In this document: positions 2,450 to 25,297 of the stretch, piece by piece
How positions within the stretch are numbered: the first letter of the stretch is position 1
Layout: every line of letters begins with the position of its first letter
From: Elusimicrobia bacterium UBA5214
GTDB taxonomy: Bacteria; Elusimicrobiota; UBA5214
Assembly (NCBI GenBank): GCA_002412545.1
Contig: DHVG01000013.1
Location: 129,315-193,314 of the forward strand
Length of the DNA stretch: 64,000 nt
Reading direction: 5' to 3'
The notes under the pieces: generated by a model
What the model was told of the DNA's origin: nothing
Databases searched by the model: none
What the model saw: only the letters and a program-made list of their open reading frames with translations
Position numbers and translations under genes: made by a program

Positions 2450-2481
2450 ATTAGTTCATATTACCGACATAATAATTTTTT

Positions 2482-3894
2482 TTACACTTTACTTATCCCC
2501 TTTGTTTTAATCATATATATTGCACTGACTCCGCTTAATGTATATCTCAAATTTCTAATGTTTGTTAATTTTCTTACACGTTTCAGAATATACTTGGGTC
2601 TGAAATAAAATTGTGTGTAAGCAATGGTAATCAACTTTTCTAATTCCATTTTCGTCATTGTATAGGGAACAAAAACTATCTCCATTCCTTGAAATTTACT
2701 CAAATCATCACAGACTAATTTACCATAGTCATTTAACTTTTCAGCAAGGTCACCGTAAGGAGTAAGTGGAAAAAAGCGAGCATAATCAATGTCAAGTTTT
2801 TTTACAAGTTTAATCGTTTTTAAACCATCCTCAAATGTTTCTCTTGGAATTCCAAAAATAAAAGACGCTTCTACTTCCATTTTGGCTTCTTTAGTCCACT
2901 TTACAGCGTTGAAATTTTGTTCTACAGTGGTACCTTTTCTTAACATATCCAAATTTTTCTGTAACATTGATTCTAAACCATAATGTATTTTCCAACACCC
3001 AGCCGATGCCATCTCTTTTAGTAACTCTTTATCAACTAGGTTGGCTCTTGCTTGAGCAGACCAGAGAATATCCAATTTATTTTTTTTAAGTAATTTTATG
3101 ATTTCTAATAATCTCTTTCTGTTGAGGGTAAGGGTATCGTCCCAGAATGCTATGTCTTTTATTCCATATTCAACCTTTAAATATTTAATTTCTTCAATAA
3201 CCGCTTCCGGACTTCTATAGCGTATTCTTTTTCCTAATACATCGGGAATACAAAAAATACATTGGTACGGACATCCTCGGGTAGTAAAAATATTTGTAAC
3301 CGGTAATTTCTTATATTGGGAAAAAGCCGGCACATAATCCAAAATGTTTACCAGACTCCGGTCAGGAAAAGAAAGTTCATCTACATTTTCAATAACATTC
3401 CGTGAGGGATTTTCAACAATAAACGAATTATCTCGGAAGATTAATCCTTTAATCTTATTTAAATCTCCTCCGTTTTCAATATAATTAACTAATTCTAAAA
3501 GTGTGTACTCACCTTCACCGTATACTAAAGCATCCAATTGAGCAGATTCCTGAAGACATTTCTTTTTAGAGATGGTAGCGTGAACACCACCAATAACAAT
3601 AAATGTTTCTGGGAATTTGTCTTTCAACATAGCGATCATTTCTTTTACTTTTGGCCAAGTAAAGGTCATCACCGAAATACCAATAATCTTTGGTTTTTCT
3701 TCAAAAATTATTCTTAACATTGAAGGAAAGTCAGTCCTACTTCCATCAAGTATGATTACTTGATGACTTGCTCTTTTTAATATTGTGCCCAAAGAGAGCA
3801 ATCCAAGTGGAGGAAGAGTCCCACCCACCTTTGCTATCGCTTTTCCATATCTTTCTTCCAAGGATATTGGCGGTAAAACTAATGCTATTTTCAT
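2482..3894 (-). CDS. B12-binding domain radical SAM protein
   Basis: N-terminal Rossmann-like B12-binding region followed by CxxxCxxC cluster motif (RGCPYQCIFC); 470 aa. Confidence 0.8.
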   Translation of the reverse strand: MKIALVLPPISLEERYGKAIAKVGGTLPPLGLLSLGTILKRASHQVIILDGSRTDFPSMLRIIFEEKPKIIGISVMTFTWPKVKEMIAMLKDKFPETFIVIGGVHATISKKKCLQESAQLDALVYGEGEYTLLELVNYIENGGDLNKIKGLIFRDNSFIVENPSRNVIENVDELSFPDRSLVNILDYVPAFSQYKKLPVTNIFTTRGCPYQCIFCIPDVLGKRIRYRSPEAVIEEIKYLKVEYGIKDIAFWDDTLTLNRKRLLEIIKLLKKNKLDILWSAQARANLVDKELLKEMASAGCWKIHYGLESMLQKNLDMLRKGTTVEQNFNAVKWTKEAKMEVEASFIFGIPRETFEDGLKTIKLVKKLDIDYARFFPLTPYGDLAEKLNDYGKLVCDDLSKFQGMEIVFVPYTMTKMELEKLITIAYTQFYFRPKYILKRVRKLTNIRNLRYTLSGVSAIYMIKTKGISKV

Positions 3895-4207
3895 TTTGTA
3901 CTTTATAATTGTATTTAGCAGTTCTTAACTTTTTTCCCAATTACTAACATTTCTCCACAAGAACTCCAGAACATTATCCAGCTTATTCGTCGTGGCATTA
4001 CCCTAAACAAGCAATTCACAAATGGTGTAAAAAAATAATTTTAACGTCTCTTTGTATTAAGAACTGCATGTACGTAAAATAAATTAAAGAATTTTCTTAC
4101 TGTTCCTTTATAAATCATTCAAAAACCTGTCTTTTCCAAAAGTTTATCTATGGTAAGTGCTGAAAAATAGTAATAACGCTTTGATATAAAAATATACCTA
4201 TTTTTCT

Positions 4208-4572
4208 TTAAAAAATTTTTGCCCTTAGGGAATCAATATCAGAAGTAACAATTATACAAGGACATTCTTTCTTAATAATTTTGTTTATCTCTTTTAACAA
4301 AGTAGTAGAATCAATTACATACTCAACAAGATCAAACATTGTAACCACATTAAAAAAATTGTCATTATATTTCATTTCTTCTAAAGTTCCAGTAGAAATT
4401 CTATCGTTGAATTTTCTCTTTGCTATTAAAATTGATTCAATTCTTCTTTTCTAGGTTGTGGATACTGTCTGATTAACCCACAGGAGGTGCATTGCACGAT
4501 TTTAAATTTATCTCTCTGAAAAAGTCCTTTATAATTATTTGAACCACAAAGATTACAACCGGTATTTTTCAT
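4208..4572 (-). pseudogene. remnant of a zinc-ribbon class I methyltransferase (internal deletion/frameshift)
   Basis: ATG at 4572..4570 overlaps the TGA stop of the upstream radical SAM gene (ATGA). Frame A gives MKNTGCNLCGSNNYKGLFQRDKFKIVQCTSCGLIRQYPQPRKEELNQF then TAA at 4428..4426; a second frame continues to a stop at 4210..4208 with ...FNVVTMFDLVEYVIDSTTLLKEINKIIKKECPCIIVTSD, resembling the C-terminal half of the 1592..2449 methyltransferase. The SAM-binding motif I region is missing. Confidence 0.5.
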
Positions 4573-5975
4573 CTTCCAGAAAAATATTTTATGCCTACTC
4601 TAATAAAGTATAAAGTCCGTTTTAAAGGAAATATCATTTTTATATAGTAAAAGATTATTTTAGGTCTTAAATAGAATTGAATCATAATCATTTGTTGAAT
4701 CCTTTTCAATTTCTTTATGGATATTGAATCCGGAGAATATACGGGAATAGCAAGGGAACCTTTTGATAGATGAAGAGAGGAATATTCTATTTTTTTTTCA
4801 CTCTTAAGCTGTTCTGTTATTTCAGAACCGGGTAGGGGGCAAAACAAAGAAAAAGTTGCTCCGACGAGATCCAGTTCTAGTGCAAGTTGTTTGGTTTTCA
4901 TAATGTCCTCAATAGTTTCATCAGGATATCCTAAAATAAAAAAAGCATGAATAGGTAAACTGCATCGCCTTACCAACGATACTTTTTCTCTTATCAAATT
5001 TAGGTTTAATCCTTTCTTCATATTGTTAAGAATCTTTTGAGAGCCGGATTCAATACCAAGAACAATCGAGTGACATCCTGATTTCTTCATCCAAGGCAAT
5101 ATTTCTTCGGTTAATGAATTTAACCTAATTCCGTTGTGCATTGTCCACTTTATTTTTATATTATTCTCAATTAGAGATTTACAAAATTCTATTACAAATG
5201 AAGAGTTGTGTATAAAATTGTCATCGGTAATTAAAATTTCTTCTACTTTAAATTTGTAATATAATAATTTAATTTCTGAGATTACACTCTCAAGGGAACG
5301 CGAACGCATTTTTCTCCCTGATATTTTATAACCGACACAGAAAGTACATCTGTATGGACATCCTCTGGTAACCACTATGGGTGCTGATTTCATTGTTCTT
5401 GCCTGAAAAGTCGGCATAAATTTATGATAAAGTGACAAATCCAAAACTGTTCCCCAAGGAGGATGCCCAAAAGAGTCAACATTCTCATAAAATATTGGTT
5501 CATTGCATATAATTCCTTTTTCTGTCCTATAGATTAAACCTGGTATTTTGTTTGCCCATCCAGTGATATCTTTCTTTGATGTAAGGCAATCTATGAACTT
5601 CGGTACACTAATTTCTCCTTCCCCTTGGAAAGCATAATCAATCCATTTTAATTGGTTTAATACTTCATAGGGAGCTGATGAAGGATGGGGTCCTCCTGCA
5701 AGAGTTATGGTATTCGGCCTGTTTCTTTTTATAATTTCTGATATTTTATCTACTACGGAAACATCGGTAGAAAACATCGTAATTCCTAATACATCGGGAT
5801 CGACTTCGTTAATTCGCTTTATTACCGATTGCATATCCAATCTTTCCGCATGAGCATCAAGAATTACAACCTCATACCCTCTTTTCAATAAAGCAGTAGC
5901 AAGATAACCTAATCCTAAAGGAGGCATTACCCAAAAAGAACTTTTTTTTATGGGGACCAATAGAAAAATACGCAT
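4569..5975 (-). CDS. B12-binding domain radical SAM protein (paralog of 2482..3894)
   Basis: CxxxCxxC motif RGCPYRCTFC and N-terminal B12-binding-like domain; same architecture as the neighbouring gene. Confidence 0.8.
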   Translation of the reverse strand: MRIFLLVPIKKSSFWVMPPLGLGYLATALLKRGYEVVILDAHAERLDMQSVIKRINEVDPDVLGITMFSTDVSVVDKISEIIKRNRPNTITLAGGPHPSSAPYEVLNQLKWIDYAFQGEGEISVPKFIDCLTSKKDITGWANKIPGLIYRTEKGIICNEPIFYENVDSFGHPPWGTVLDLSLYHKFMPTFQARTMKSAPIVVTRGCPYRCTFCVGYKISGRKMRSRSLESVISEIKLLYYKFKVEEILITDDNFIHNSSFVIEFCKSLIENNIKIKWTMHNGIRLNSLTEEILPWMKKSGCHSIVLGIESGSQKILNNMKKGLNLNLIREKVSLVRRCSLPIHAFFILGYPDETIEDIMKTKQLALELDLVGATFSLFCPLPGSEITEQLKSEKKIEYSSLHLSKGSLAIPVYSPDSISIKKLKRIQQMIMIQFYLRPKIIFYYIKMIFPLKRTLYFIRVGIKYFSGR

Positions 5976-6026
5976 AAATTTTAAATTCTAGAAAATTTAA
6001 TTTAAGATATTTTTAATAAGCGCTTT

Positions 6027-7181
6027 TTATTTGTTAATTTCCTTTTTGACTGCTTCAAATACTTCGTCAACTTCTATCGCCTGTAAACATTTTGGTTCAT
6101 TATACCGGCAACGACCTGTTTTCTGGTCATACACATGAATACAAGGACTACAAGAAATGTTCTTAAAGAACACTTTATGTCTATTACCTCTCGGACCATA
6201 AATTACTGGTGTTTCCGGACCAAAAAATGAAATGGTTGAAATATCAAGGGCATAAGCAATATGTAAAGGACCAGCGTCATTAGAAATAAATAATCTTACT
6301 TTTGAGATAAAACTTACCAATTGCTTTAAGTCAAGTTTACCTGCAAGATTTATTATTTTGTTTAAACTATTAGTTGCATTAATTATCTCTCCTACATAAT
6401 GTCTTTCATCTTCTGCCCCAATCAAAACAATTTTTACTTTGTTACTAAGATTAGCGATCCTGTCAATTAAACTAACAAATTTTTCTTTTGGCCATCTTCT
6501 TTGAAGACCAAGTGGACCAGCATTCACATTTATTCCAATTATATTATCCGATTTGTTAATTTCATATTCTTGCAATAAATTTTTTATGGTTTCATCAGAG
6601 GGAGTTTTTATTTCTGGATGGTATATTTGGTTAATAGTAGTCACTCCCACTGCGGCATTAATAAAATTTTCAGAAACATGCCAGTAATAATTAAAGGGAA
6701 TGTTAACATCATGAAAATTTCCTCTCCATATATCCCATGCATGAAAACCTACCCTTTTTTTTGCTCCGGCAAGGAAACTGAAAATTGCAGAAAATCGTGT
6801 AAAGAATTCAAAATCAAATAATATGTCATATTTCATTTTTCTTATTTTTATAAGTAGTTTTAGAACGTTTAATATAAAGGGAGTAAAATTTTTTTCTAAT
6901 CTTAATACTAATACATTGTCCAATTCTGGAATTAGTTCACATATTCCTTTATTCTGATGGAAGGTAAGAAAATCAATTCTTACTTCGGGATACCTTTGTC
7001 TCAACAACTTTATAGCAGGTGTAGTTTCTATAATACTTCCAACTCCCCAGAATTTTATTATAAGAATCTTTCCCACTTTTTCTATATTTACTCTTTTCCG
7101 TAGCCAGTTAAATGGCTGCAAAATAAGGCATAACAATTTGCCAACCCATAAATCTATTCTACGCATTGTCCATAATGTCAT
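6027..7181 (-). CDS. glycosyltransferase family 9 (heptosyltransferase-like)
   Basis: GT9 C-terminal signature NDAGPLHIAYALDISTISFFGPETP; 384 aa. Confidence 0.75.
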   Translation of the reverse strand: MTLWTMRRIDLWVGKLLCLILQPFNWLRKRVNIEKVGKILIIKFWGVGSIIETTPAIKLLRQRYPEVRIDFLTFHQNKGICELIPELDNVLVLRLEKNFTPFILNVLKLLIKIRKMKYDILFDFEFFTRFSAIFSFLAGAKKRVGFHAWDIWRGNFHDVNIPFNYYWHVSENFINAAVGVTTINQIYHPEIKTPSDETIKNLLQEYEINKSDNIIGINVNAGPLGLQRRWPKEKFVSLIDRIANLSNKVKIVLIGAEDERHYVGEIINATNSLNKIINLAGKLDLKQLVSFISKVRLFISNDAGPLHIAYALDISTISFFGPETPVIYGPRGNRHKVFFKNISCSPCIHVYDQKTGRCRYNEPKCLQAIEVDEVFEAVKKEINK

Positions 7182-7890
7182 TTCTATTTTTCTCCTTAGA
7201 ACCGAGGTAGAGATAAATGTAAAATTAATCCCATATTTTAAGTATCTTGCTGACCGTTATTGTCCAAGTTAACAAAGTAACCCCAATATTTGGACAGCAA
7301 GGTGTTTTTGGGAACTAGCAATGAAGATTTAAACTTTAAGTTGTTGATTAATAAATCAAAAAATAACTAAACTCGCCAATATTATTTGTAAATCGGGTAC
7401 AGTAGAAATAGAGGAAACTATTAGTAAAAAGTCGTACCACCCTGTCTATTTTGGAATCTTTTGAGTAAATACGGTGCGGTTTGCTTAAAAATTTCTGTTT
7501 AGAATAAAATCCTCTGTTTACGGTGTTAGCGAATAGATGTCCTTTATTATAAAGTTATAAAATTATCCTTAATTATTATTTTAACAAAAATATTGGGAAA
7601 AAACAAGGTTTTAGGTAGGAATTTAATTCAGAAAACTTGTTAAGACCACTCAAAGATTAGGACATAAGTTAGAATTGGTAATTAAAAGTTAAGGTTCTAT
7701 TTGAAAGAAATAAGCAATGATATTCTTTTCGTTCACTTACAGGCAAAATTTTTGTTTATCCGAATATTTATAGGACAAATTGATAACTGTTATTTTTTTA
7801 TTCTTTTTTCAATTTAATCTCTTTTGAATTAAACTTTATACGTCATTTCAGTACAATCATCTTTTTTGTATCCACAAAACTACGGCTTCA

Positions 7891-7937
7891 CCCTCACCTT
7901 TTTCCTCTCCCCTCGGAGGGAGAGGGTCGGGTGAGGG
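7891..7937. repeat. GC-rich nested inverted repeat (two-stem hairpin) just past the stop of the LamG/T9SS gene
   Basis: Outer stem ccctcacc (7891..7898) pairs with ggtgaggg (7930..7937); inner stem cctctccc (7904..7911) pairs with gggagagg (7918..7925). Strongly GC-rich against an AT-rich background; no U-tract follows on the minus strand. Confidence 0.8.
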
Positions 7938-7945
7938 GCAATCTT

Positions 7946-8952
7946 TTACTTCAATACTACCATTTTCTTAGTGTCAACAAAACTACCGGCTTTCACCTGG
8001 TAGTAGTAGATTCCTCTTGAGAGTTCGTCACTTTGATTAAATACAACTTTATGCGGACCAGCCGTTTGCCACTCGTCAACCAAGGTTGCTACTTCCTCTC
8101 CACCAACATTGTATAACTTTATGGTTACCTGACAATCCTGAGCAACGGAATACTCAATTGTTGTTGCTGGATTAAACGGATTTGGATAATTTTGTCCCAG
8201 AGAGTTGACATCTGCAGTTGCTGATGGACTAACTACGATTGTCCGTGGCTTACCGGGTTTCACATTTCCTTCGTAATGTGCTTTAATTTCTTCAGCACTT
8301 AAAGCACGGTTGTAAACCCGAGATTCATCGATTGTTCCTTTGAACCAATTGTAATCTCCGGAAAGACAGTGTGCTCCAATTTGTAAAGGAACATCATTAG
8401 TCACTATATGACCTGAAATTAGTCTGTTGCCTGTTTCAACACCGTTTACATATATTCGCTCAACAGAACCATCGTATGTCCCAACGATATGCGCCCACTC
8501 ACCAAAGGTAAGATTAACTGACGAAACTATGTAATTCCAAGTATTAGTATAAAGTACTAACTGAGGAGTTATTCCATTAGGTTGCAACTCCAGTACATAA
8601 CCACTTCATCCTCCCCACTTTGAACGATTATTTGATGATCTCCCGTTGTTTTAATAGGCTTAATCCACGCTTCAATTGTAATTGCATCTGTAATATCGAA
8701 ATTACTCGAATCATTCACACGTACATAATCATCCACTCCATCAAAACTTAGTGCTTTGCCAACTTTACCATCTACCCAGGTCGCACCGTAGATTGTTCCA
8801 TCATTACTATTTCCTGAATAGTCATGGGCGATTGTTCCTTCCCCTTCATCAAAACTCCAGTAACCAACTAAACCTTCTTCTGCTTTAAGCCGCTGTGTAA
8901 GAAGAAATAGTCCAAATTCTACCATAACCAAAAATCCAAAAATTTTTTTCAT
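7946..8952 (-). pseudogene. secreted LamG (concanavalin-like) domain protein with T9SS C-terminal sorting domain, split by an apparent frameshift
   Basis: Track ORFs 8569..8952 (signal peptide, LamG N-half GLVGYWSFDEGEG...IEAWIKP) and 7946..8587 (LamG C-half ...GEWAHIVGTYDGS..., then NYPNPFNPATTIEY...YYYQV T9SS-type tail) overlap by 19 nt in different frames. The downstream ORF starts at TTG. Frame switch near 8587..8625 beside a C-rich run; could be a real pseudogene or an assembly indel. Confidence 0.55.
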
Positions 8953-9130
8953 CGGTTTCTCTCCCTCCTTTTTTAGAATTTAGCGACTTGAAAGTCAACA
9001 CTTCTTTGGCTTGTCCCGATGAATCGGAACGCTACCTCCCTTTGCGGACTAAAGTCCGCCATTACGGAAAGATAATAAATCTCAAAATGTCGACTTTCAG
9101 AAAATTTCCTTAAACAAAAAACAGATGAGA

Positions 9131-9183
9131 CCCTCCCCCCACCGCTTTGCTTCGCAAAGCGAAGCAGTGAGGATCAGGGTGAC
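9131..9183. repeat. GC-rich palindromic element, degenerate relative of 7891..7937, containing a perfect hairpin
   Basis: ccctccccccacc ... gtgagg...cagggtgac flanks; internal perfect hairpin gcttcgc-aaa-gcgaagc at 9149..9165. Another perfect hairpin gcggac-taaa-gtccgc sits at 9044..9059. Confidence 0.6.
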
Positions 9184-9393
9184 ACACTCAAGGATGGACA
9201 CCTAGCACTTTACCGCTTAACGCTGACAACTGTCTTTATTATACCCCCCCAGAAAATTTGCCAAGAGTTTTTTGAGAATCTTTTAGATTTGAAAAAATCA
9301 GTTGATGAGGTCTACTGAAAGGAAAACTAAGATGTGAGTCAGGTTGGCAAAGAAATTTTTAGACAGGTAAAGGACGAACATAAAGGATTAAAA

Positions 9394-10218
9394 CTATTCG
9401 GATAACCCACTTTTAATTTCTTGAAGAGAGATGCTTTCTTTAAGAATAAAGAAAAGTCCAAGGAGAGTAACTAAAAGAAAATTAAAGAAATGGTGAGTTA
9501 AAGTAAAACTTAAGGCAAGTTCTTTGTTAATTTTATAAAAACTTAAAGCCAACACACCAAAAAATTCCCATGTCCCGATGTAACCCGGAGAAGAAGGAAT
9601 AGTTACACTTACTCCTACAATTCCTAAAAAAAACATCGCCGCGCTAAAAGGTAACTTCATATTGAAAGCGAAAAACATTACATAAACGCCTGAAATGTAA
9701 ATAAACCAAAGAATAAACGAAATAAAAAAAATCTTTAATAGAAGGTGCCCTTGTCGTAAAACTTTAAATCCGCTCACAAAAGAATTAAAAAGTTGGACAG
9801 ATCTCTCAGCAAGTTTTACGGAAAAAAAAGAAATTATTTTCTTCCCTAATTTCTCAGTTTGTTTCTCAAACTTAAGCAAAAAAGTAAAAAAAACTGCTAA
9901 ACCAAAAATAACAATAACCAAAGCAAAAATATTTATCTCTTTAGGAAGGACAAAAAAAAATGAAATGATAAAAAAAATAGAAATTAAGAAAATTAGGTCA
10001 GTCAGCCGCTCTAAAACTACAGTAGAAAAGACCGTACTTTTACTAATTTTTTCTTTTCGTCCTAAAAAATATGCCTGGACTAAATCACCAAAACGAAAAG
10101 GAAAAAGATTATTTGCTGCCTGACCAACACAGGTTGCGGAAACTAAACTAAATAAAGGTACCTTTTTTTGGGGAAGAAGCAAGTAACACCAACGAATACT
10201 ACGGACAAATAAACCCAA
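9394..10218 (-). CDS. flippase-like membrane protein (lysylphosphatidylglycerol synthase TM-region family, UPF0104-like); true start probably upstream
   Basis: Multi-TM protein with FGDLVQAYFL and PSSPGYIGTWE motifs. Track start is TTG; the frame stays open ~50 codons further upstream (..KKALWFGLLISVFFLVLVFYKIDFKEFF..) with no ATG/GTG/TTG. Confidence 0.6.
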   Translation of the reverse strand: MGLFVRSIRWCYLLLPQKKVPLFSLVSATCVGQAANNLFPFRFGDLVQAYFLGRKEKISKSTVFSTVVLERLTDLIFLISIFFIISFFFVLPKEINIFALVIVIFGLAVFFTFLLKFEKQTEKLGKKIISFFSVKLAERSVQLFNSFVSGFKVLRQGHLLLKIFFISFILWFIYISGVYVMFFAFNMKLPFSAAMFFLGIVGVSVTIPSSPGYIGTWEFFGVLALSFYKINKELALSFTLTHHFFNFLLVTLLGLFFILKESISLQEIKSGLSE

Positions 10219-10361
10219 AACACCGATTAGTAAAGCAAAAATTACATAAAAAAAATTGACTTTTTTTAAAGTAGAGAAAAATTCTTTGAAATCAATTTTA
10301 TAAAAAACTAAAACTAAAAAAAATACACTAATCAGTAGTCCAAACCATAAAGCTTTTTTCT

Positions 10362-11270
10362 TTATTTTTTTTCTCCTTCTTTTGAGACAATTTTATCTTT
10401 CTCTTTGAATAATTCAGCAATACCGGAAATCGCTCCTAAAACACCGCTTGTTTCTAAAGGTAAAAATATTTTTGTTGCCTGTCCTTCAGCAATTTTACCT
10501 AATGCCTCAAGATATTTAATCGCAATTAGGTCATTAGTTGGTCTACCTGAATGAATCGCATTAAAAACAGTTTCAATTTGATATTTTTCTGCTTCAGCAA
10601 CTTTTTTAATCGCTTCGGCTTTACCTTCGGCACTGAGAATCGCTGCTTGTTTTTCGCCTTCAGCTTTAGTAATTGCCGCTTGACGAAAACCTTCAGCTTC
10701 TAAAATTACTGCTCGTTTTTCGCGTTCTGCTTTCATCTGTTTAGACATCGCATCAGTTATATCTTTCGGTGGTTCAATTTTTTGGATTTCCACCCGGGTA
10801 ACCTTCACACCCCATTTGTCGGTTGCTTCGTCAAGGACACGGCGCAGTTGGTCATTAATCCTTTCTCTTGAAGTTAAGGTTTGGTCAAGTTCCATATCTC
10901 CAATTACATTGCGTAAATTTGTTTGGGCTAATTTAAGTGCGGCTAAAGCAAAATTGGCTACATTATAAATTACTTTAAAGGGGTCAGTCACCTGAAAATA
11001 AATTACCGCGTCAACCGTAACTAAAACATTATCTCTGGTAATCACATCCTGTGGTGGAACATCAATTACCTGTTCTCTAATGTCTACTTTTCTTATCGTC
11101 TCCAGCATCGGAATAATGAAAGCCAAACCCGATTCTTCGGTACGATTGTATTTACCTAATCTTTCTACTAACCCCTTTTCATAAGGACGAATAATTCTTA
11201 ATGCAGTTCTTGCGAAAATAAGTAAAAAAATTATTGCTAAAAATAAAAATGGCACCGGTAACCCTTCCAT
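10362..11270 (-). CDS. SPFH/band 7 (stomatin/prohibitin-like) membrane protein
   Basis: N-terminal TM helix, SPFH core (RTEESGLAFIIPMLETIRKVDIREQVIDVPPQDVITRDN...), repetitive AEGxxQAAI C-terminal coiled region. Confidence 0.85.
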   Translation of the reverse strand: MEGLPVPFLFLAIIFLLIFARTALRIIRPYEKGLVERLGKYNRTEESGLAFIIPMLETIRKVDIREQVIDVPPQDVITRDNVLVTVDAVIYFQVTDPFKVIYNVANFALAALKLAQTNLRNVIGDMELDQTLTSRERINDQLRRVLDEATDKWGVKVTRVEIQKIEPPKDITDAMSKQMKAEREKRAVILEAEGFRQAAITKAEGEKQAAILSAEGKAEAIKKVAEAEKYQIETVFNAIHSGRPTNDLIAIKYLEALGKIAEGQATKIFLPLETSGVLGAISGIAELFKEKDKIVSKEGEKK

Positions 11271-11290
11271 CTTTTTTCCTCCTTTTTAAC

Positions 11291-12466
11291 CTATAAAATT
11301 TTTTGGGCTGCTTTGTGGAATGTTTCAATAATTCGGTTAATTGTTTCTTCAGACATAATTACTGAAATTGAAATTGCTACACTCTTTTTAAGAATTTCAT
11401 CAGAGTGTGGAAATAATTCTTCTATCTTTTTATATTTTTTATAGCGACTAATCTTTTTGTATATTTGTGGCCAATTAGGAAAATAATGCCAGCCTAAAGC
11501 GGAAGGTAAAATTTTGAGTGGAACTTTTTCTTGATTGAGAAACTGTGCGAATTCTTTTGCTTGTTCAGGGGTCGGTAAAAATACTACCAAAGTGTCTCCG
11601 CCATCACCATCCGGGTCAGGTCGTTCTCTGAATTTAAGCCCTTTAATATTTTTTATCCCATTTTTTATTTTTTCTTTGTTCTTTCTTTGTTCTTGAATTA
11701 CATAATCTAACCGTGAAAGTTGCACTAAACCGATTGCACTTTGTAATTCATTCATCCGATAATTAAAACCGGCGATACTCTTTGTGTCTTCCCCACGAGG
11801 AATATCTGGTTTATGCTCGTGCCCATGGTCAGCATACCAAGAACTTCTTAAATAGAAATCTTTATTATTTGTCACCACCATCCCACCTTCACCGGTAGTG
11901 ATTGTTTTCACAAAGTCAAAACTGTAACAACCAAGATTACCAAGTGTGCCGACTTTTTTGCCAAAATAAGAAGAACCGCAGGACTGACAAGCATCTTCAA
12001 TTATAAACAAATTATACTTGCGGGCAATTTCCATAATTTCTTTCATTTCTGCCGGTACACCTAACATATGTATCGGAATAATCGCTTTTGTTCTTTTAGT
12101 AATTTTTTTCTCTATATCTTCCGGGAGAATATTTAATGTTTCATTAATCTCACAGATTACTGGCTCGGCTCCTGCTTCCAAGATTGCTTCTACCGTAGCA
12201 ACAAAAGTGAAACACGAAGTAATTACTTCATCATCTTTGCCGATATCTAAAGCCGCAAGAGCTACCCTTAATGCCGCTGTCCCTGAACTTACCGCTTGAG
12301 CATATTTTACACTCATATATTGGGCAAATTTTTCTTCAAATTCTTTAACTTTATAGATACCTTTCCTTTCTTTATCAAAACCATAGCGGAAAAATATCCC
12401 ACTCCGATTAATTACATCAAGTAAAGCACTTTTTTCTTCTTCACCGATTAACTCATATCCAGGCAT
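11291..12466 (-). CDS. DegT/DnrJ/EryC1/StrS-family PLP-dependent aminotransferase
   Basis: Fold-type I sugar-aminotransferase pattern with PLP-lysine region SFDFVKTITTGEGG; 391 aa. Confidence 0.8.
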   Translation of the reverse strand: MPGYELIGEEEKSALLDVINRSGIFFRYGFDKERKGIYKVKEFEEKFAQYMSVKYAQAVSSGTAALRVALAALDIGKDDEVITSCFTFVATVEAILEAGAEPVICEINETLNILPEDIEKKITKRTKAIIPIHMLGVPAEMKEIMEIARKYNLFIIEDACQSCGSSYFGKKVGTLGNLGCYSFDFVKTITTGEGGMVVTNNKDFYLRSSWYADHGHEHKPDIPRGEDTKSIAGFNYRMNELQSAIGLVQLSRLDYVIQEQRKNKEKIKNGIKNIKGLKFRERPDPDGDGGDTLVVFLPTPEQAKEFAQFLNQEKVPLKILPSALGWHYFPNWPQIYKKISRYKKYKKIEELFPHSDEILKKSVAISISVIMSEETINRIIETFHKAAQKIL

Positions 12467-12480
12467 TTTTTTATCTCCTC

Positions 12481-13665
12481 TTAACTATGTGCACTAATCA
12501 ATTCTTCAAGAATTTCTCTTGCTGTTTTTTCATCAAAAGGATGAGGATTATTTTCAATTACCGGCTTAAGTAAAAAAGTATTTTCTACTAATCCCGGGAT
12601 TGCAGATTCAGGAATATTGAATTTACTTAAATCTTTTGGTATTCCAATTTTTTCATTTAATTCGACCACTCTCTCCCAAACAAAAGAAACAGCCTTTTCT
12701 TCACTTTCTTCAAGGATGCTCATTTTTTGTGCGAGATGTGCAAACTTTTCTGGTCTATCTGGTCTATTTTTATAGTTATATCTCATTATATAAGGAATTA
12801 AAATACCATTCGCTAAACCATGAGGTATTTTAAAAAAAACACTTAAAGGGTAAGATAAAGCATGTGCTGCACCTACCCCGGCATTAGCAATTGCAATACC
12901 TGCTAAACAACTACCTAAAAGAAGGTTGGTCCGGGCTTGAACATCTTGACCATTTTTTACAGCCAGGGGAAGGTTGTTCCAAATCAACTCAAAAGCTTCT
13001 AAAGCAAACATATCTGAGATTGGTGAACTACGTTTAGCAACATAAGATTCAATGGCATGAGTTAAAGCATCCATACCAGTAGAAGCAGTAATTTCTTTTG
13101 GTAAACTTAAAGTCAATTCTGGGTCAAGTAAAACCAAATCAGTAAAAAGATAAGAACTATTTATACCTAATTTTATCTTTTTTCTACGGTTAATAAAAAC
13201 TGCTGTGGGGGTAACTTCACTACCTGTCCCGGCAGTGGTCGGAACTAAAATTGTCTTTACACCGGGGGCTTTAATTTTACTCCCAAATCCTTGATACTCT
13301 TCCGCTTTACCTTCATTAGTAATCAATATCGCCGCTGCTTTGGCTACATCTAAGACACTCCCTCCCCCGATACCAATAATTAAGTCGCATTTTTCTTTTT
13401 TTCCTAACTGCGCACAAGAATCGGCAATTTCTAATTCTGGCTCCGAACTGACTCCGTCGTAAAGAATAGTCTTCAGATTTTCATTTTTAAGTATTGTTTC
13501 AATTCTATTTATTAATCCCAAACTTTTTAGATTTTTGTCTGTAACAAGCAAAACTGTTTTTGCAGCAAAATTTTTTGCTTCTTTACCTAAATTACTAATT
13601 TTACCGTAACCAAAACTTATTCGTTTTACCGTATGAAAATTAAACTCCATTTGAGTTGACTGCAT
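12481..13665 (-). CDS. iron-containing alcohol dehydrogenase family protein
   Basis: GGGS dinucleotide-binding motif (IGIGGGSVLDVAKA) and metal-binding His region (AHALSYPL...HG) typical of Fe-ADH / DHQS-like superfamily. Confidence 0.8.
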   Translation of the reverse strand: MQSTQMEFNFHTVKRISFGYGKISNLGKEAKNFAAKTVLLVTDKNLKSLGLINRIETILKNENLKTILYDGVSSEPELEIADSCAQLGKKEKCDLIIGIGGGSVLDVAKAAAILITNEGKAEEYQGFGSKIKAPGVKTILVPTTAGTGSEVTPTAVFINRRKKIKLGINSSYLFTDLVLLDPELTLSLPKEITASTGMDALTHAIESYVAKRSSPISDMFALEAFELIWNNLPLAVKNGQDVQARTNLLLGSCLAGIAIANAGVGAAHALSYPLSVFFKIPHGLANGILIPYIMRYNYKNRPDRPEKFAHLAQKMSILEESEEKAVSFVWERVVELNEKIGIPKDLSKFNIPESAIPGLVENTFLLKPVIENNPHPFDEKTAREILEELISAHS

Positions 13666-13666
13666 C

Positions 13667-14143
13667 TCATTTACTTTCCAAAATTTTCTTTACCAATAAT
13701 TTTGTCCCTTCAATTCCGATTATTTCCACCCATTCGTCCCGTAGAATACTTTTACGGGATTCATTTGAGGTAATTATTTCTTTTTCGTCCAATAAAAAGG
13801 CAAGCCATTCTTCTCCTTCTACTTTAACTCTACCTTTCTTATCTACTGGGTTGAAAGATTCTACTACTAACGCTTTTTTGCCAATTAAAGAATCAACTGC
13901 CACTCGGGTAACACCTTTTTTCGTTAATCTTTTTGCTAAAGGACGAGTCAAAATTACAAGCAACAAAGAAGCAAAGAAAAAAATTAGCCAGAGGAAAAAG
14001 TTTTCCTTAACAAATAAAGAAAAAATAAAAGTAATTAAAGCCGCAGTTCCAATGGAAGCAAGAAAAAAAATGGAAGGAGTAAGAATTTCAAGCAGATAAC
14101 AAAGTATGGCAAAAATTAACCAAAAAAAATGTATGTCAATCAT
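13667..14143 (-). CDS. NfeD-family membrane protein (OB-fold C-terminus)
   Basis: Three N-terminal TM helices plus short C-terminal beta-rich domain, 158 aa; ATGA overlap with lepB upstream. NfeD normally pairs with an SPFH gene. Confidence 0.65.
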   Translation of the reverse strand: MIDIHFFWLIFAILCYLLEILTPSIFFLASIGTAALITFIFSLFVKENFFLWLIFFFASLLLVILTRPLAKRLTKKGVTRVAVDSLIGKKALVVESFNPVDKKGRVKVEGEEWLAFLLDEKEIITSNESRKSILRDEWVEIIGIEGTKLLVKKILESK

Positions 14144-14910
14144 TTGATTATTTTTATTCTTTTTATTGGCCAGTAAAGAAATAAGGCACGACCCTTAAGA
14201 TATTTGTCTGCTAACGGTCCCCAAAAACGTGAATCAAAAGAACTATCCCGGTTATCTCCAAGGACAAGATAATATCCTTGGGGAACTTTTACTGGACCAA
14301 AATTATCTCTTACTGTCCCTCCAATCATCTGAGCAAATTTCCCTTCTTCCCAAGATTTCTGGTAATTTTCTGAATTAGGGAAAAAATGTGGTGCGGGATA
14401 AACAACCTCTTGATTATAGTAAGCATGCAATTCGTCTAAAAGTTTACCATTAATATAAATTTTCTTATTTCTAATTTCCACCATGTCACCCGGCAAACCA
14501 ATACACCGTTTGATAAAATCTTTTTGTACTTTTTTTTCTCTTTCTAACGGTGAAAGTGCTTCCGGCGGACAGGAGAAAATGATTATTTCTCCCCGTTTAA
14601 CTTTCTGCAAGGGAAAAATTCTTATTTCCGTAAAAGGTATCCGTAAACCATAGATAAACTTGTTTACAAATAAATGGTCACCTTCAATTAGTGTTGGACG
14701 CATTGAACCGGAAGGTATTTTGAATGCTTGAATAATAAAGTTCATAATTAAGGCAGCTAAAATTACTGCTGAAAATAGAGTATCGATCCAGTCTAAAACT
14801 TGACTAAAGAATTTTTCACTTTTTTTACTCTTTATTCTCGGACGGAAAAGACGTAAAAAAATAGTTAATAAACCAAGAATAACACCAAACCAGATAATTT
14901 TCGTTTCCAT
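14140..14910 (-). CDS. lepB: signal peptidase I
   Basis: Catalytic Ser box SGSMRPTL and conserved GDNRDSSFDSRFWG box. Confidence 0.9.
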   Translation of the reverse strand: METKIIWFGVILGLLTIFLRLFRPRIKSKKSEKFFSQVLDWIDTLFSAVILAALIMNFIIQAFKIPSGSMRPTLIEGDHLFVNKFIYGLRIPFTEIRIFPLQKVKRGEIIIFSCPPEALSPLEREKKVQKDFIKRCIGLPGDMVEIRNKKIYINGKLLDELHAYYNQEVVYPAPHFFPNSENYQKSWEEGKFAQMIGGTVRDNFGPVKVPQGYYLVLGDNRDSSFDSRFWGPLADKYLKGRALFLYWPIKRIKIIK

Positions 14911-14927
14911 TGAGATGATTACCCCTT

Positions 14928-16712
14928 TTATGTTTTGAATATAGAAAAAAATGCTTCCGGTGGAATATTCACTTCACCAAATTGTTGCATTTTCTTTTTA
15001 CCTTCCTTCTGTTTCTGCAATAGTTTTCTCTTCCTTGTAATATCCCCACCGTAACATTTCGCGGTAACATCTTTACGCAACGGTGGTATATTTTCACGAG
15101 CAATAATTTTGTTATTCACTCGTGCTTGTATTGGCACAGAGAAAAGATGCCGCGGGATAAGTTGAGAAAGTTTTTCTACTAATTTATTTCCTTTATTATA
15201 TGCATTATCCCGATGGATAAGAAAAGAAAAAGCATCAACTACTTGATGATTAACCAAAATTTCTAATTTCACAAGGTCACTTTTTCTAAACCCAATTATT
15301 TCGTAATCAAAAGAGGCATAACCTTGAGTAACTGATTTCAATTGGTCATAAAAATCATAAACAATTTCTGCAAGCGGTAATTCATAATAAAGAAGAACAC
15401 GTTCTGAAGAAATATAACGGAGTGTTTTAAATTTCGCTTGCCGATTATCAAGCATATTCATTACTGCACCAACATACTCTTTGGGAGTAACAATCATCGC
15501 TGAAACATAATTTTCTTCAATTTCTTTAATTTCATTTATTGGTGGTAATTGTATCGGATGATTAATTTCTATTACTTCACCATTTATTTTTCTTACCTGA
15601 TAAATAACATTGGGTGAAGTAACCAAAAGTTCTAATCTAAATTCACGTTTTAATCGTTCTTTAACTATTTCTAAATGCAAAACACCTAAAAAACCACAAC
15701 GAAATCCCGCACCAAGAATTTGTGAATTCTCCGGAATAAAGTAAAAAGAACTATCCGTAAGATGTAATTTTTCTAAAGCAAGTTGTAAATGTGGGTAATC
15801 CGCTGGATTTAGAGGATAAAATCCACTAAAAACATAGGGTTTAACTTCTCGGAATCCAGGATAAGTTTTTTTCCTTTCCGAATCTTTCTCTATCAGAAGG
15901 TCACCTATTTTTACTTGATGAATATCTTTAATTCCCGCAATACAATAACCCACTTCACCCGCAAAGAGACTTTTACTTTTTACCATTTTCAGTTGTAAAT
16001 ACCCCACTTCATTTACTTCATAAATTCCACCTGAGGAAATAAATTGTATCTTTTGTCCTTCGAAAATTTTTCCTTCTAAAATTTTTACATACAACACTAC
16101 ACCCCGGAATGGGTCATAAAAAGAATCAAAAACTAAAGCTTCTAAAGAAGTTTCTGTAGAACCATAAGGAGGTCGAATCTTTTTTACAATCGTTTCTAAA
16201 ATTTCTTCTGTTCCTAATCCTTGCTTTGCACTCGCCAAAAGTGGTTCTTCTTCAATTCCTAAGATTTCTTTTATTTGTTTTTTTGTTCCTTCAATATCTG
16301 TCTGCGGCAAGTCAATCTTGTTGACCACTGGAATGACTACCAAATTATTTTTTCTGGCTAACTCAAAATTGGCTAAGGTTTGCGCTTCTACACCTTGACT
16401 TGCATCAATTAATAAAAGACATCCTTCACAAGCGGCTAACGCACGAGAAACTTCATAAGTAAAATCTACATGTCCCGGGGTATCAATCAAGTTGAAAATA
16501 TAATTCTTTCCGTCAAGAGATACATAGTTCAAACGTACCGTTTTTGCCTTGATGGTAATACCTCGCTCCCGTTCTAATTCTAAACCATCAAGAATTTGTG
16601 GTTGATGACTTTTTTGCGAAATCAACCCGGTATATTCTAAAAAACGATCAGCAAGAGTCGATTTACCATGGTCAATATGAGCAATAATCGAAAAATTACG
16701 AATATTTTTCAT
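14928..16712 (-). CDS. lepA: elongation factor 4 (LepA)
   Basis: G-domain NFSIIAHIDHGKSTLADR, DTPGHVDF, NKID; 594 aa; classic lepA-lepB pairing. Confidence 0.95.
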   Translation of the reverse strand: MKNIRNFSIIAHIDHGKSTLADRFLEYTGLISQKSHQPQILDGLELERERGITIKAKTVRLNYVSLDGKNYIFNLIDTPGHVDFTYEVSRALAACEGCLLLIDASQGVEAQTLANFELARKNNLVVIPVVNKIDLPQTDIEGTKKQIKEILGIEEEPLLASAKQGLGTEEILETIVKKIRPPYGSTETSLEALVFDSFYDPFRGVVLYVKILEGKIFEGQKIQFISSGGIYEVNEVGYLQLKMVKSKSLFAGEVGYCIAGIKDIHQVKIGDLLIEKDSERKKTYPGFREVKPYVFSGFYPLNPADYPHLQLALEKLHLTDSSFYFIPENSQILGAGFRCGFLGVLHLEIVKERLKREFRLELLVTSPNVIYQVRKINGEVIEINHPIQLPPINEIKEIEENYVSAMIVTPKEYVGAVMNMLDNRQAKFKTLRYISSERVLLYYELPLAEIVYDFYDQLKSVTQGYASFDYEIIGFRKSDLVKLEILVNHQVVDAFSFLIHRDNAYNKGNKLVEKLSQLIPRHLFSVPIQARVNNKIIARENIPPLRKDVTAKCYGGDITRKRKLLQKQKEGKKKMQQFGEVNIPPEAFFSIFKT

Positions 16713-18761: not shown

Positions 18762-20906
18762 TTATTTAAAATGTTCTACCGTTATTGAAAAACTCGTTGA
18801 CCAAGTTTTATCTGGTTTGATGTTCAACTTCCAGTGAGGAAGAAAAATTGTCCCTTGATAGGTGCGTTCAAAACCAGATTCGGAAGAAGAAACTGTCTCC
18901 AAAGGATAATACCAAACATTTACTGGTTTAGGAAAGTCAAATCTTATTTTCATTTTTTGGTTTTCATCAATTCTTTCCCAAGAATTCTTTACTAAAAGTT
19001 CACCACCATCATCTATTTTTTCAGATAAAGCAAGATTAAATTCACAAGCAAACCAAATACCAATTACAGAGGTAGAAAAATTACCAAGACGATAATTAAC
19101 CTGAATTAAAGCCGAATTATCAACTACAATTTCTTTTTCTAAAGAAAGAGGGATTTTTTCTTCACCAGACCAAACTACACCCCGTCTGCGAAAATGAATC
19201 TTAATTTGATTTTTACCCTTTTTTACTTCCAAATTGTAAGATTGATTAACAAAATCACCTTGCTCACCGTATTGACATTTCCGAAAATCATCCCAAGAAG
19301 TATGCGGATGAAGAAAATGGTCAATTAGACAATTACGATTGTACCAATCGTAAAAAAGGTAATTTTCCAATCCTTCTTCTTTAACTTTTACCAGTTCATG
19401 AATAGTTTTTACTGTTTCACTCTCCTTTGGTCGTTCTTTCAAATATTCTTGTAAATGTTTATGATATACTTCTGACCGACGAGTAAGAACATTGACTAAA
19501 TTTACTCCCGCTGGAATAAAATCCCATTCAAAAAGTGTTCCTCCTTGAGCTAAATCAAAATATAAATTATAAGTTGAAGTTTCTACAATAAGTTCTTCTT
19601 TACCATCACAATTAAAATCAATTAAGTCAGAATGTATTTTTTCCTTTTTTATTAAGGAATTAACAATATCTTCGGCTTTAATTAAATTGCGATAAACTGC
19701 TTGTCGTAAATGGGGTAAATAAAGCCCACCAAATACACCGTGCCAATAAGCACAATTACATTGTCCTGCATAGAGCAAATCCAGCGCTTGCTGGATTTGC
19801 GGTGTAAGGTGTAAGGTATAAGGTGTAAGAGTACTTTCTTTACCTTTCACTTTACACTTTACACTTTCAACTGCTTTATTAACTTTTTCACTAACATAAA
19901 GCATTTTTTTATGAATATTATTTGCTTCTGGATATTTAACTAAAAAATTGCGCCAAAAACCACCCTTTAAAAAGGGACGTAATTTTTCTTTAACTACTCC
20001 CGGTAAAACATCTAAATTTTTTAATACTCGAGAAAAATCTTCTCCTATTCTTATATTTGGTATTGCCCATTCCGACATTTCAAAATATGCCGCTGTCGGA
20101 AGATATATCCTTCCACGTGGAGAAAACTGGTCTAAATACTCAGAAAAAGTCATTGAGATTAACCAATCAGCATTCGCTTCTAAAAGAGTAAAAAATTTAT
20201 CCAGCCATCCATCACCATACACATGTTTATGTGTCTCTGGCCAAATACCAAATTTTTCACCGTCATCAATAATAGTTAGACCAATATCTTCTTTTCTCTC
20301 ACTGTAAGAACGTAAATATTCAATTATTTCCTCTGGAATACCAAAAGGGATAAGGTAACGTAAACGTTGACTAATTGGAAAAATTCTTAAAGTTTCTCCT
20401 TCTTCTTCCGTAAGAAAATAACCGGTTAGGTCTTCGGGATGAATACCGGCAGAGAGAAAATGTGTGTCATCAACAATTGTATACTCAATTTTACTTTCGG
20501 CAAGTGATTTCGCTAAATGTGGTTCCCACACTCTTTCCGCTAACCAAACACCACTTGCAGTTATCCCAAATTCTTCCTTCAAGAATTTAGTTTGTTTAGC
20601 AATTTGTCCAAATTTATCTCGGTCAGGTATTACCGGAAGAATTGGCTCGTAATAACCACCGGTAAGTAGCTCAAGCCGTCTATCTTTAAGCAATTTTTTT
20701 ACCCGGTCAAGAAATTCGGGATGGTGTTCTTTTAGCCATTCCCAAAGTATACCACTACAATGAAAGTTAAGTTTAATCAACGGATGTCTGAGTAAAACTT
20801 CAATAAATGGTGCATATGCTTTTTGGTATGCTTTTTCAAAAATCTCCGGGAAATTACCTATTGGCTGATGATTATGAATTCCAAAAAGAAAATATATTTT
20901 TTTCAT
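18762..20906 (-). CDS. glycoside hydrolase family 57 protein (alpha-amylase / 4-alpha-glucanotransferase-like)
   Basis: GH57 hallmark GIHNHQPIGNF near N-terminus; 714 aa. Confidence 0.8.
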   Translation of the reverse strand: MKKIYFLFGIHNHQPIGNFPEIFEKAYQKAYAPFIEVLLRHPLIKLNFHCSGILWEWLKEHHPEFLDRVKKLLKDRRLELLTGGYYEPILPVIPDRDKFGQIAKQTKFLKEEFGITASGVWLAERVWEPHLAKSLAESKIEYTIVDDTHFLSAGIHPEDLTGYFLTEEEGETLRIFPISQRLRYLIPFGIPEEIIEYLRSYSERKEDIGLTIIDDGEKFGIWPETHKHVYGDGWLDKFFTLLEANADWLISMTFSEYLDQFSPRGRIYLPTAAYFEMSEWAIPNIRIGEDFSRVLKNLDVLPGVVKEKLRPFLKGGFWRNFLVKYPEANNIHKKMLYVSEKVNKAVESVKCKVKGKESTLTPYTLHLTPQIQQALDLLYAGQCNCAYWHGVFGGLYLPHLRQAVYRNLIKAEDIVNSLIKKEKIHSDLIDFNCDGKEELIVETSTYNLYFDLAQGGTLFEWDFIPAGVNLVNVLTRRSEVYHKHLQEYLKERPKESETVKTIHELVKVKEEGLENYLFYDWYNRNCLIDHFLHPHTSWDDFRKCQYGEQGDFVNQSYNLEVKKGKNQIKIHFRRRGVVWSGEEKIPLSLEKEIVVDNSALIQVNYRLGNFSTSVIGIWFACEFNLALSEKIDDGGELLVKNSWERIDENQKMKIRFDFPKPVNVWYYPLETVSSSESGFERTYQGTIFLPHWKLNIKPDKTWSTSFSITVEHFK
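19801..19871. repeat. inverted pair of heptamer arrays inside the GH57 CDS
   Basis: GTGTAAG x4 (19802..19829, one variant GTATAAG), 15-nt spacer, then TTTCAC/TTTACAC/TTTACAC/TTTCAAC (19845..19871) in inverted orientation. In-frame; encodes ...VKCKVKGKESTLTPYTLHLTP... Confidence 0.85.
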
Positions 20907-22573: not shown

Positions 22574-23000
22574 TGCTGGGAACTCCTTTTTTAAGGAAGA
22601 AATCTTTAGCGTTGAGAATGTTTTTCCTTCCATCATTAATCACCTGTTCGATTAATTCTTCTAAAGATAAATTTACCCTTTTGCTTAAAACAGAAATAAG
22701 TAGATACAAGTTAAAACCGCTAACCAATCCACATTTAATATTCTTTTTTTCTATTTCTTTGACCACTGAAAGTGCAAGATTACATGGTGTTCCACCACAC
22801 ATGTCCGTCAAAATAAGCACCCCTTCCGGACAATTTAACTCATAGATTTTTTCAATAATTTGTTGTTTAAGTATCTCCGGGTCTTGGTCAGAAAAGAAAG
22901 AAAAGGAATAAGTCTTCTCCTGAGGACCAAGAATTTCTATTGCCGATTCCAACATTTTTTCACCAAAATTACCACGGGTGAGTATAATTACAGTTGTCAT
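22566..23000 (-). CDS. PTS EIIA-Man-family domain protein with His-to-Arg substitution at the expected phospho-acceptor position
   Basis: MTTVIILTRGNFGEKMLESAIEILG and LTDMCGGTPCN match the EIIA-Man fold pattern (IVIGTHG...; LVDTWGGSP), but TRG replaces THG. Confidence 0.55.
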   Translation of the reverse strand: MTTVIILTRGNFGEKMLESAIEILGPQEKTYSFSFFSDQDPEILKQQIIEKIYELNCPEGVLILTDMCGGTPCNLALSVVKEIEKKNIKCGLVSGFNLYLLISVLSKRVNLSLEELIEQVINDGRKNILNAKDFFLKKGVPSNE

Positions 23001-23015
23001 CTAATTAGACACTAT

Positions 23016-25280: not shown

Positions 25281-25297
25281 GTTTACTCCTTTTTCAA

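Follow-up and report, generated by a model that had tools for sequence, protein, structure and literature searches.

An iron-type alcohol dehydrogenase and a KdnA-like aminotransferase gene between nfeD and the SPFH gene of an Elusimicrobiota genome: a probable, independent Kdo-aminating cassette

Genes encoding NfeD and SPFH/stomatin-like membrane proteins are normally adjacent, NfeD being encoded in the same operon for 229 of 353 SPFH1 genes (PMC2636767), which raises the question of why these partners are separated in the 64-kb stretch of DNA from Elusimicrobia bacterium UBA5214 analysed here (the window). In this window, nfeD and the SPFH gene are 2396 nucleotides apart, the intervening space being occupied by the genes of an iron-type alcohol dehydrogenase (Fe-ADH) and a DegT-family aminotransferase. 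An earlier, sequence-only reading of the locus had proposed that the operon, in which a flippase-like membrane protein gene follows, may tie the making of an aminated head group or small molecule to membrane-microdomain proteins. In the current work a different explanation is favoured with moderate confidence, namely that the two enzymes constitute a self-contained cassette which places an amino group on the last carbon of an ulosonic acid, most likely 3-deoxy-D-manno-octulosonate (Kdo), and which landed between nfeD and the SPFH gene while being independent of both.

The genes concerned are all located on the minus strand, in the transcription order HPr, ptsI, lepA, lepB, nfeD, Fe-ADH, DegT, SPFH and flippase-like gene, and the order and coordinates first assigned to them were confirmed, as was each gene family by Pfam and NCBIfam models. 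The signal peptidase I gene lepB (14140-14910; Pfam Peptidase_S26, 162 bits; TIGR02227, above cutoff) overlaps nfeD (13667-14143; 158 residues) by 4 nucleotides, the latter matching PF01957, the NfeD C-terminal domain, with 44 bits over residues 83-153. After 1 nucleotide follows the iron-type (group III) Fe-ADH gene (12481-13665; Pfam Fe-ADH and ADH_Fe_C), after another 14 nucleotides the gene of a KdnA-like pyridoxal phosphate (PLP) aminotransferase (11291-12466; Pfam DegT_DnrJ_EryC1, 303 bits), and after 20 nucleotides the SPFH gene (10362-11270; 302 residues; Pfam Band_7, PF01145, 150 bits). The PF01957 and PF01145 matches both exceed their cutoffs. Proteins identical to those of the window are encoded by the NCBI metagenome-assembled genome (MAG) GCA_002400355.1 and by one Joint Genome Institute (JGI) contig. 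Contigs and loci of relatives are labelled L003 to L158 below.

The aminotransferase has as its best match in the PDB structure 5K8B, which is KdnA of Shewanella oneidensis, the transaminase that forms 8-amino-3,8-dideoxy-D-manno-octulosonate (Kdo8N). This alignment (E value 6e-96, 325 bits) spans residues 1-386 of the 391 residues of the window protein, and the runner-up among solved DegT enzymes reaches 198 bits and is aligned only from about residue 40, so that the N-terminal segment of approximately 40 residues (containing an FRYGF motif) is aligned by KdnA and by no other DegT structure. The PLP-lysine motif SFDFVKTITTGEGG at residue 182, with K187, is invariant in the aligned set and stands opposite SFDSVKTIT of KdnA. 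Identity to the KdnA of Shewanella locus L142 is about 42%, and the JGI annotation of the protein is likewise Kdo8N transaminase. The window protein therefore combines a DegT-type PLP fold and its catalytic lysine with KdnA (EC 2.6.1.109) as the nearest characterised relative over the full length, with an Fe-ADH gene immediately upstream, and with relatives that lie beside the Kdo and lipopolysaccharide (LPS) genes kdsB, hldD or lptB. Judged by these comparisons, the aminotransferase joins the KdnA group as a new member, and it is predicted to convert 8-oxo-Kdo to 8-amino-Kdo (Kdo8N).

Its Fe-ADH partner carries an intact GGGSVLD nucleotide motif at residue 100 and the metal ligands D199, H203, H268 and H282, and in sequence alignments the catalytic residues of both enzymes are intact. 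With KdnB, which is a 3-deoxy-manno-octulosonate 8-oxidase (EC 1.1.3.48; CDD cd08184; PMC5125639), it shares the Fe-ADH fold, the nucleotide motif and the four metal ligands; it does not share the place immediately downstream of kdnA, the window gene being located upstream. In phmmer comparisons the window Fe-ADH scored 282-354 bits to Fe-ADHs that accompany KdnA-like proteins in loci with kdsB or hldD, 228 bits to the best generic alcohol dehydrogenase in the PDB (a methanol dehydrogenase), 180-243 bits to Fe-ADHs from loci with neuB, and 110-138 bits to KdnB-type enzymes (approximately 29% identity). By score it thus appears to belong to the kdsB/hldD-linked group. The Fe-ADH encoded downstream of kdnA in Shewanella locus L142 is a true KdnB (711 bits to 5K8C), to which the window protein scored 110 bits. 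Its predicted reaction is the oxidation of Kdo at the terminal C8 hydroxyl, with an aldehyde as product. It carries an Asp where NAD-preferring enzymes typically do, and NAD+ instead of oxygen is its probable oxidant. The general chemistry of the sequence-only reading, in which an alcohol group of a sugar is turned into an aldehyde and then into an amine, is supported.

The recurrence of this pair was assessed in a set of 80 loci with KdnA-like proteins, all from different species, whose neighbouring genes were identified by a simple open reading frame finder and BLAST against the window proteins, family models being applied to representatives only; a single-protein scan of metagenomes, which returned mostly generic DegT genes, added two useful loci. 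In 26 of the 80 loci, mostly from Syntrophales and other Desulfobacterota, an Fe-ADH gene whose product is at least 40% identical to that of the window lies upstream of the KdnA-like gene, and kdsB and/or the ADP-heptose epimerase gene hldD occur within 6 kb in 18 of these, neuB in none; representative neighbours passed the NCBIfam equivalog cutoffs for KdsB and heptose epimerase. This upstream position is found in all loci of the window Fe-ADH subgroup except L106. A KdnB-type Fe-ADH gene lies downstream in 11 further loci (including Shewanella, Cloacimonadota and Desulfobacterales), six of which have kdsB nearby. Because an Fe-ADH from a non-KdnB subgroup recurs in this way with KdnA-like genes, the pair is predicted to represent a variant Kdo8N pathway outside Shewanella. 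The supposition that the two genes have nothing to do with each other, chance having placed a generic alcohol dehydrogenase from central metabolism beside a sugar aminotransferase, would agree with the best characterised relatives of the Fe-ADH (methanol, 1,3-propanediol and lactaldehyde dehydrogenases) and with its public annotation as 'alcohol dehydrogenase'; it is rendered hardly credible by the adjacency of Fe-ADH and KdnA-like genes at both positions that the pair occupies in the window lineage (next to lepB and next to lptB, see below) and in more than 40 loci of several phyla, in two gene orders and with two Fe-ADH subgroups.

The window itself is for the most part a region of LPS inner-core genes, and it holds those for substrate supply, activation and transfer in a Kdo8N pathway. 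On the minus strand are located kdsC (26988-27521; TIGR01670, KdsC subfamily), kdsD (27568-28527; TIGR00393, KpsF/KdsD subfamily), kdsA (28820-29647; TIGR01362) and kdsB (29682-30413; TIGR00466), each above the cutoff of its model, together with the Kdo transferase gene waaA (48246-49553; Pfam Glycos_transf_N, 194 bits). Further LPS genes of the window are lptB, lptC, the hldE kinase gene, gmhB, lpxL, lpxK and four GT9 heptosyltransferase genes, accompanied by three genes of the sulfatase family (phosphoethanolamine-transferase-like, EptA-like).

As to how the pair came to separate nfeD from the SPFH gene, the window NfeD is of the short type, with a hydrophobic N-terminal half and a C-terminal partner-binding domain, and the SPFH protein has an N-terminal membrane anchor and a C-terminal region rich in repeats. 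Three tandem 33-nucleotide (11-residue) repeats at 10623-10733 encode a coiled-coil segment of the form AEG...AA(I/L), which is ordinary for stomatin-like proteins. SPFH proteins 74-93% identical to that of the window were found over many Elusimicrobiota contigs. In more distant members of the phylum (L153/L154 and L155/L156) the order is HPr-ptsI-lepA-lepB-nfeD-SPFH, and the nearest relative with an intact SPFH gene (L157/L158, 93% identical) has lepB-nfeD-SPFH-flippase-like, unbroken and lacking the enzyme pair; the gaps in lepB-nfeD-SPFH of these contigs measure 10-70 nucleotides. The lepB synteny is kept in L003, L005, L145, L146, L153, L155 and L157, and lepB is a member of a conserved HPr-ptsI-lepA-lepB-nfeD-SPFH block of Elusimicrobiota. 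Since lepB-nfeD-SPFH is unbroken in four other Elusimicrobiota contigs, with relatives keeping nfeD and SPFH together in the same lepA-lepB context, the split order is derived, and the earlier descriptions of the two genes as normal neighbours and of the pair as inserted are both borne out. The split is accordingly real and derived, and not a chance arrangement.

Relatives whose DegT protein is 79-86% identical to that of the window share the lepA-lepB context. When the arrangement of the window was looked for in related genomes, the split was seen in no contig other than the window's own and that of L005, the closest relative (DegT 86% identical; a Logan assembly of unknown read type), which keeps the gene order of the window but in which both nfeD and the SPFH gene are pseudogenes. 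The L005 nfeD has suffered a 59-nucleotide deletion, a TGG-to-TAG stop and six small indels, five of them frame-breaking, and its SPFH gene has lost 2 and 125 nucleotides in two deletions; lepA, lepB, Fe-ADH and DegT differ from those of the window by in-frame indels only. Sequencing error was rejected as the source of the L005 frameshifts, because frame-breaking indels, a nonsense codon and large deletions occur in nfeD and SPFH alone, the differences in the four flanking genes all being in frame. Four further relatives (L003, L007, L145 and L146) have the order lepB-Fe-ADH-DegT, in some followed by the flippase-like gene, with an intact enzyme pair and without nfeD and SPFH, and a permissive tblastn search of these four for remnants of the two genes returned nothing except the last bases of SPFH. 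These retained bases hold the ribosome-binding site and an ATA codon of the flippase-like gene.

The simplest series would run from an unbroken block (as in L157) through insertion of the pair (the window) and decay of the flanking genes (L005) to their deletion (L003, L007, L145 and L146), the direction of movement within it being the one we infer. Along this series the enzyme pair is kept throughout and NfeD and SPFH are lost together, a joint loss that fits an obligate partnership; the split itself may have triggered their joint decay. As a separate observation, in L003 (9177-9313) and L007 (7177-7280) the spacer between DegT and the flippase-like gene, the very place from which SPFH is absent, contains a GC-rich element made up of repeated hairpin units of the CCCTTTAC/GTAAAGGG type in an otherwise AT-rich genome. 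The element differs in length between the two; it may be a small repeat element that took part in the deletion, or one that inserted later. Elsewhere in the phylum, L151/L152 carries a lone SPFH gene (6001-6897; product 83% identical to that of the window) downstream of gyrB, flanked by genes for a PALP enzyme and a T2SSE ATPase and with no nfeD nearby; SPFH has therefore moved or been orphaned on more than one occasion in Elusimicrobiota.

A search for direct and inverted repeats over 9300-15000 of the window revealed no insertion scars, only AT-rich low-complexity matches, and there is no room for scars because the intergenic gaps measure only 1-20 nucleotides. Base composition shows no sign of recent foreign origin, since a GC fraction of 0.34-0.35 is uniform throughout the region. 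An Rfam scan of the whole window gave zero matches, and a promoter scan detected fewer sites in the real than in shuffled sequence.

A second location of the pair was found in L147/L148, where the DegT protein is 68% identical to that of the window and the two genes lie between lptB and ptsN. The order in L147 is lptB (C-terminus), Fe-ADH, DegT, ptsN, hprK and rapZ, otherwise collinear with positions 20903-26017 of the window, in which the matching site is the 17-nucleotide lptB/ptsN junction (25281-25297, minus strand). The L147/L148 pair therefore sits inside the kds-lpt-ptsN LPS cluster.

The gene that follows SPFH in the window (minus strand, listed as 9394-10218) matches LPG_synthase_TM (PF03706, 146 bits) and TIGR00374 (95 bits), and its start deserves consideration since the tight packing described by the sequence-only reading for the entire operon holds from lepB through SPFH and extends to this gene only if translation starts at ATA 10365, overlapping the SPFH stop codon. 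The first ATG, GTG or TTG is at 10218, 143 nucleotides downstream, and the conserved N-terminus reaches back to the ATA, so that the protein has 274 residues from the listed start and about 323 from the ATA (9394-10365). In five lineages (window, L003, L007, L146 and L157) the conserved N-terminal region is devoid of ATG, GTG and TTG, and in all five an ATA is found 6-7 nucleotides after a strong AGGAG-type ribosome-binding site (window 10362-10379, minus strand; L003 ~9300; L007 ~7270; L146 ~6925; L157 ~1775), the ATA overlapping the SPFH stop (ATAA) in both the window and L157. The gene is thus a candidate for a conserved non-canonical ATA start or for tight translational coupling. A terminator-like hairpin with a T-run located 3' of it (9124-9143, minus strand; detected as a pattern match only, in a consensus scan) marks the probable end of the operon. 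The enzyme pair is likely to be co-transcribed with its neighbours from lepB to the flippase-like gene, because the six genes are co-directional with a 4-nucleotide overlap and gaps of 1-20 nucleotides; co-transcription does not, however, imply joint function.

Such probable co-transcription, the flippase-like gene that follows, and the fact that the enzyme pair directly adjoins this gene in L003, L007 and L146 are what speaks for the proposal that the operon couples amination of a head group or small molecule to SPFH/NfeD microdomains and to export. We regard that coupling as very improbable, and the comparative data did not sustain it: the split order was found solely in the window contig and in L005, where nfeD and SPFH are pseudogenes, both genes are gone from four relatives with intact enzymes, no homologue of nfeD, SPFH, the flippase-like gene or lepB was found near the KdnA-like gene in any of the 80 loci from other species, and in L157 the flippase-like gene follows SPFH in the absence of the pair. 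The enzymes, moreover, match a known and unrelated cytoplasmic sugar pathway, that of Kdo8N formation, and are encoded beside kdsB, hldD or lptB elsewhere. The two outcomes that the sequence-only reading had named as refuting its proposal, an arrangement peculiar to this genome with insertion scars and enzymes of a known unrelated pathway, have thus largely come about, the scars excepted. An enzyme-flippase trio was also considered; it was rejected on account of L157, whose lepB-nfeD-SPFH-flippase block lacks the enzymes, and of the other phyla, none of which links the pair to such a gene. From these gene orders, the flippase-like gene appears to be ancestrally tied to the lepB-nfeD-SPFH block and not to the enzyme pair, and its adjacency to the pair in L003-type genomes appears to be a by-product of SPFH deletion. 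The independence of the pair from NfeD and SPFH thus follows from the absence of both from all 80 loci, their loss in L003-type genomes and their pseudogene state in L005.

According to the favoured explanation, the Fe-ADH would oxidise the C8 primary alcohol of free Kdo to an aldehyde, probably with NAD+, after which the KdnA-like PLP enzyme would transaminate the aldehyde to Kdo8N. KdsB would then activate Kdo8N, and WaaA would attach it to lipid A as part of the inner core of LPS. The cassette would have landed in the short nfeD/SPFH spacer of a housekeeping lepA-lepB-nfeD-SPFH-flippase-like operon.

The alternative that has to be weighed most closely for the substrate is a stand-alone cassette that aminates another primary alcohol, such as C9 of a nonulosonic acid, or that of a heptose or other envelope sugar. 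In a few loci a third arrangement was encountered, with a more divergent upstream Fe-ADH gene within NeuB/NeuC/PseF-like nonulosonic-acid clusters (L122 of Methanolobus psychrotolerans, 6209-11484; L068, 4876-11962; L076, 7453-11968). The hosts are the archaeon Methanolobus and two MAGs, one of Spirochaetota and one of Bacteroidota; pairs in L081 and L095, from Actinomycetota, have the same neuB context, and the archaeon and the Actinomycetota are without Kdo-LPS. These clusters suggest a terminal amination of nonulosonic acids, which to our knowledge is undescribed. We nevertheless consider this alternative unlikely for the window, given that its Fe-ADH scores higher to kdsB/hldD-linked than to neuB-linked partners, that the two neuB-linked Fe-ADHs aligned (L068 and L122) lack the third metal-binding histidine, unlike the window enzyme, that the nearest informative relatives of the aminotransferase are kdsB-linked (in a neighbour-joining tree without bootstrap the window lineage is sister to the clade holding L066 and L067) with the L147 pair beside lptB, and that the full Kdo path is present in the 64-kb window, where no neuB homologue was found.

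A number of points nonetheless weigh against assigning the window pair to Kdo. In the same unbootstrapped tree the neuB-linked branch adjoins the window clade as its next neighbour, and since related pairs sit in NeuB/NeuC/PseF-like clusters, the family is not restricted to Kdo. The Fe-ADH was ruled out as a KdnB orthologue, its 110-138 bits to KdnB types lying below the 228 bits to a generic methanol dehydrogenase, and we know of no upstream-type Fe-ADH that has been characterised biochemically. Neither enzyme of the pair reaches an NCBIfam equivalog cutoff, and the window pair lies 13-16 kb away from kdsA-D instead of next to these genes. L147 and L157 may come from one genome, as shared samples suggest. 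Finally, Kdo8N has been chemically reported only from Shewanella, and is treated as exclusive to, or a hallmark of, that genus (PMC4402001, PMC6357163).

Taken with these reservations, comparison across genomes suggests a far wider occurrence of Kdo8N-type modification of the LPS inner core than the Shewanella-only picture of the literature, and the wide genomic distribution of the pair constitutes a testable prediction. We tentatively propose a second, probably oxygen-independent Kdo8N route, consisting of a KdnA-like enzyme and a classical NAD-type Fe-ADH, that would be widespread in anaerobic diderms (Elusimicrobiota, Syntrophales and other Desulfobacterota), with a NeuB/NeuC sister branch in archaea, Actinomycetota and Bacteroidota making undescribed terminally aminated nonulosonic acids. 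If true, Kdo8N would be no Shewanella hallmark. At least two subgroups of Fe-ADH appear to have supplied partners for the same chemistry. The best reading of the nfeD-SPFH split is that of a relocation, neutral or mildly disruptive, and of an evolutionary accident, and the locus provides no evidence for a new link of amino-lipid synthesis to membrane microdomains. Its intact, split, pseudogene and deleted states amount to a small natural experiment on the joint loss of NfeD and SPFH.

Other features of the window were noted in passing. One long co-directional LPS region occupies approximately 23000-50000 on the minus strand, comprising rapZ, hprK, ptsN, lptB, lptC, kdsC, kdsD, kdsA and kdsB, and from there the hldE kinase gene, a GSU2086-family gene (31454-32419), a DUF3108+PEMT fusion (32416-33711), gmhB, lpxL, lpxK, a GT2 gene, three sulfatase-family genes, a GT4 gene, three GT9 genes and waaA. 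After the lepB-SPFH block, positions 1592-7181 (minus strand) encode two B12-binding radical SAM proteins, a methyltransferase and a GT9/GT2 protein; radical SAM, GT2 and methyltransferase genes are likewise found 3' of SPFH in the distant Elusimicrobiota L153/L154 and L155/L156, and form a conserved, envelope-related module. A gene encoding a Laminin_G_3 protein with a type IX secretion system C-terminal sorting domain (7946-8952, minus strand) is split into two overlapping open reading frames in different frames, 8569-8952 (Pfam profile positions 1-49) and 7946-8587 (positions 60-151 and Por_Secre_tail). Its L003 homologue is intact (350 residues), and the split may reflect decay to a pseudogene by frameshift, misassembly or programmed frameshifting.

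With regard to known systems, the window NfeD and SPFH resemble the partners of NfeD1a-SPFH1a operons (E. coli ybbJ-qmcA and Pyrococcus PH1510/PH1511; Hinderhofer et al. 2009, PMC2636767) in being a short NfeD and a membrane-anchored SPFH protein, and differ from them in being encoded 2.4 kb apart, not adjacently, with unrelated enzyme genes in between. The flippase-like protein resembles TIGR00374/LPG_synthase_TM proteins (the MprF membrane domain; HpnL), matching most of the model lengths; it carries the membrane domain PF03706 only and, unlike MprF, is not a lysyl-phosphatidylglycerol synthase of that type, because the C-terminal aminoacyl-transferase (lysyl-transferase) domain is absent. 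In the ArnA/ArnB routes a carbonyl made by a dehydrogenase is aminated by a DegT-family aminotransferase, and LPS decorated with the product is less negatively charged. These Arn enzymes act on a sugar linked to uridine diphosphate, at C4'', and need a GT2 protein, a flippase and ArnT. The window pair shares with them the logic of oxidation followed by transamination for an LPS amino sugar, and differs in resembling enzymes that act on free Kdo before its activation with cytidine monophosphate and in having no dedicated transferase linked to it.

The closest likeness is to the KdnA/KdnB pathway for Kdo8N of Shewanella oneidensis, reportedly described by Gattis et al. in 2013 in J Biol Chem 288:9216; structures 5K8B and 5K8C are those of its enzymes. 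In Shewanella, according to that part of PMC4402001 which cites Gattis et al. 2013, Kdo is converted before its incorporation and loss of the genes raises sensitivity to polymyxin and bile salts. Both systems are two-gene cassettes of a PLP aminotransferase and an oxidoreductase of the Fe-ADH fold, linked to Kdo/LPS core genes, and the chemistry predicted for the window pair is that of Shewanella, a primary alcohol group of a free ulosonic acid being turned first into an aldehyde and then into an amine. KdnB has the enzyme classification of an oxidase, and a NAD+-dependent dehydrogenase seems more plausible for the window Fe-ADH, which groups with the classical NAD-type enzymes. What would be new relative to the known Kdo8N system is thus the non-orthologous Fe-ADH partner, the reversed gene order with the oxidoreductase gene upstream, and the host, an uncultured bacterium of a further phylum, Elusimicrobiota.

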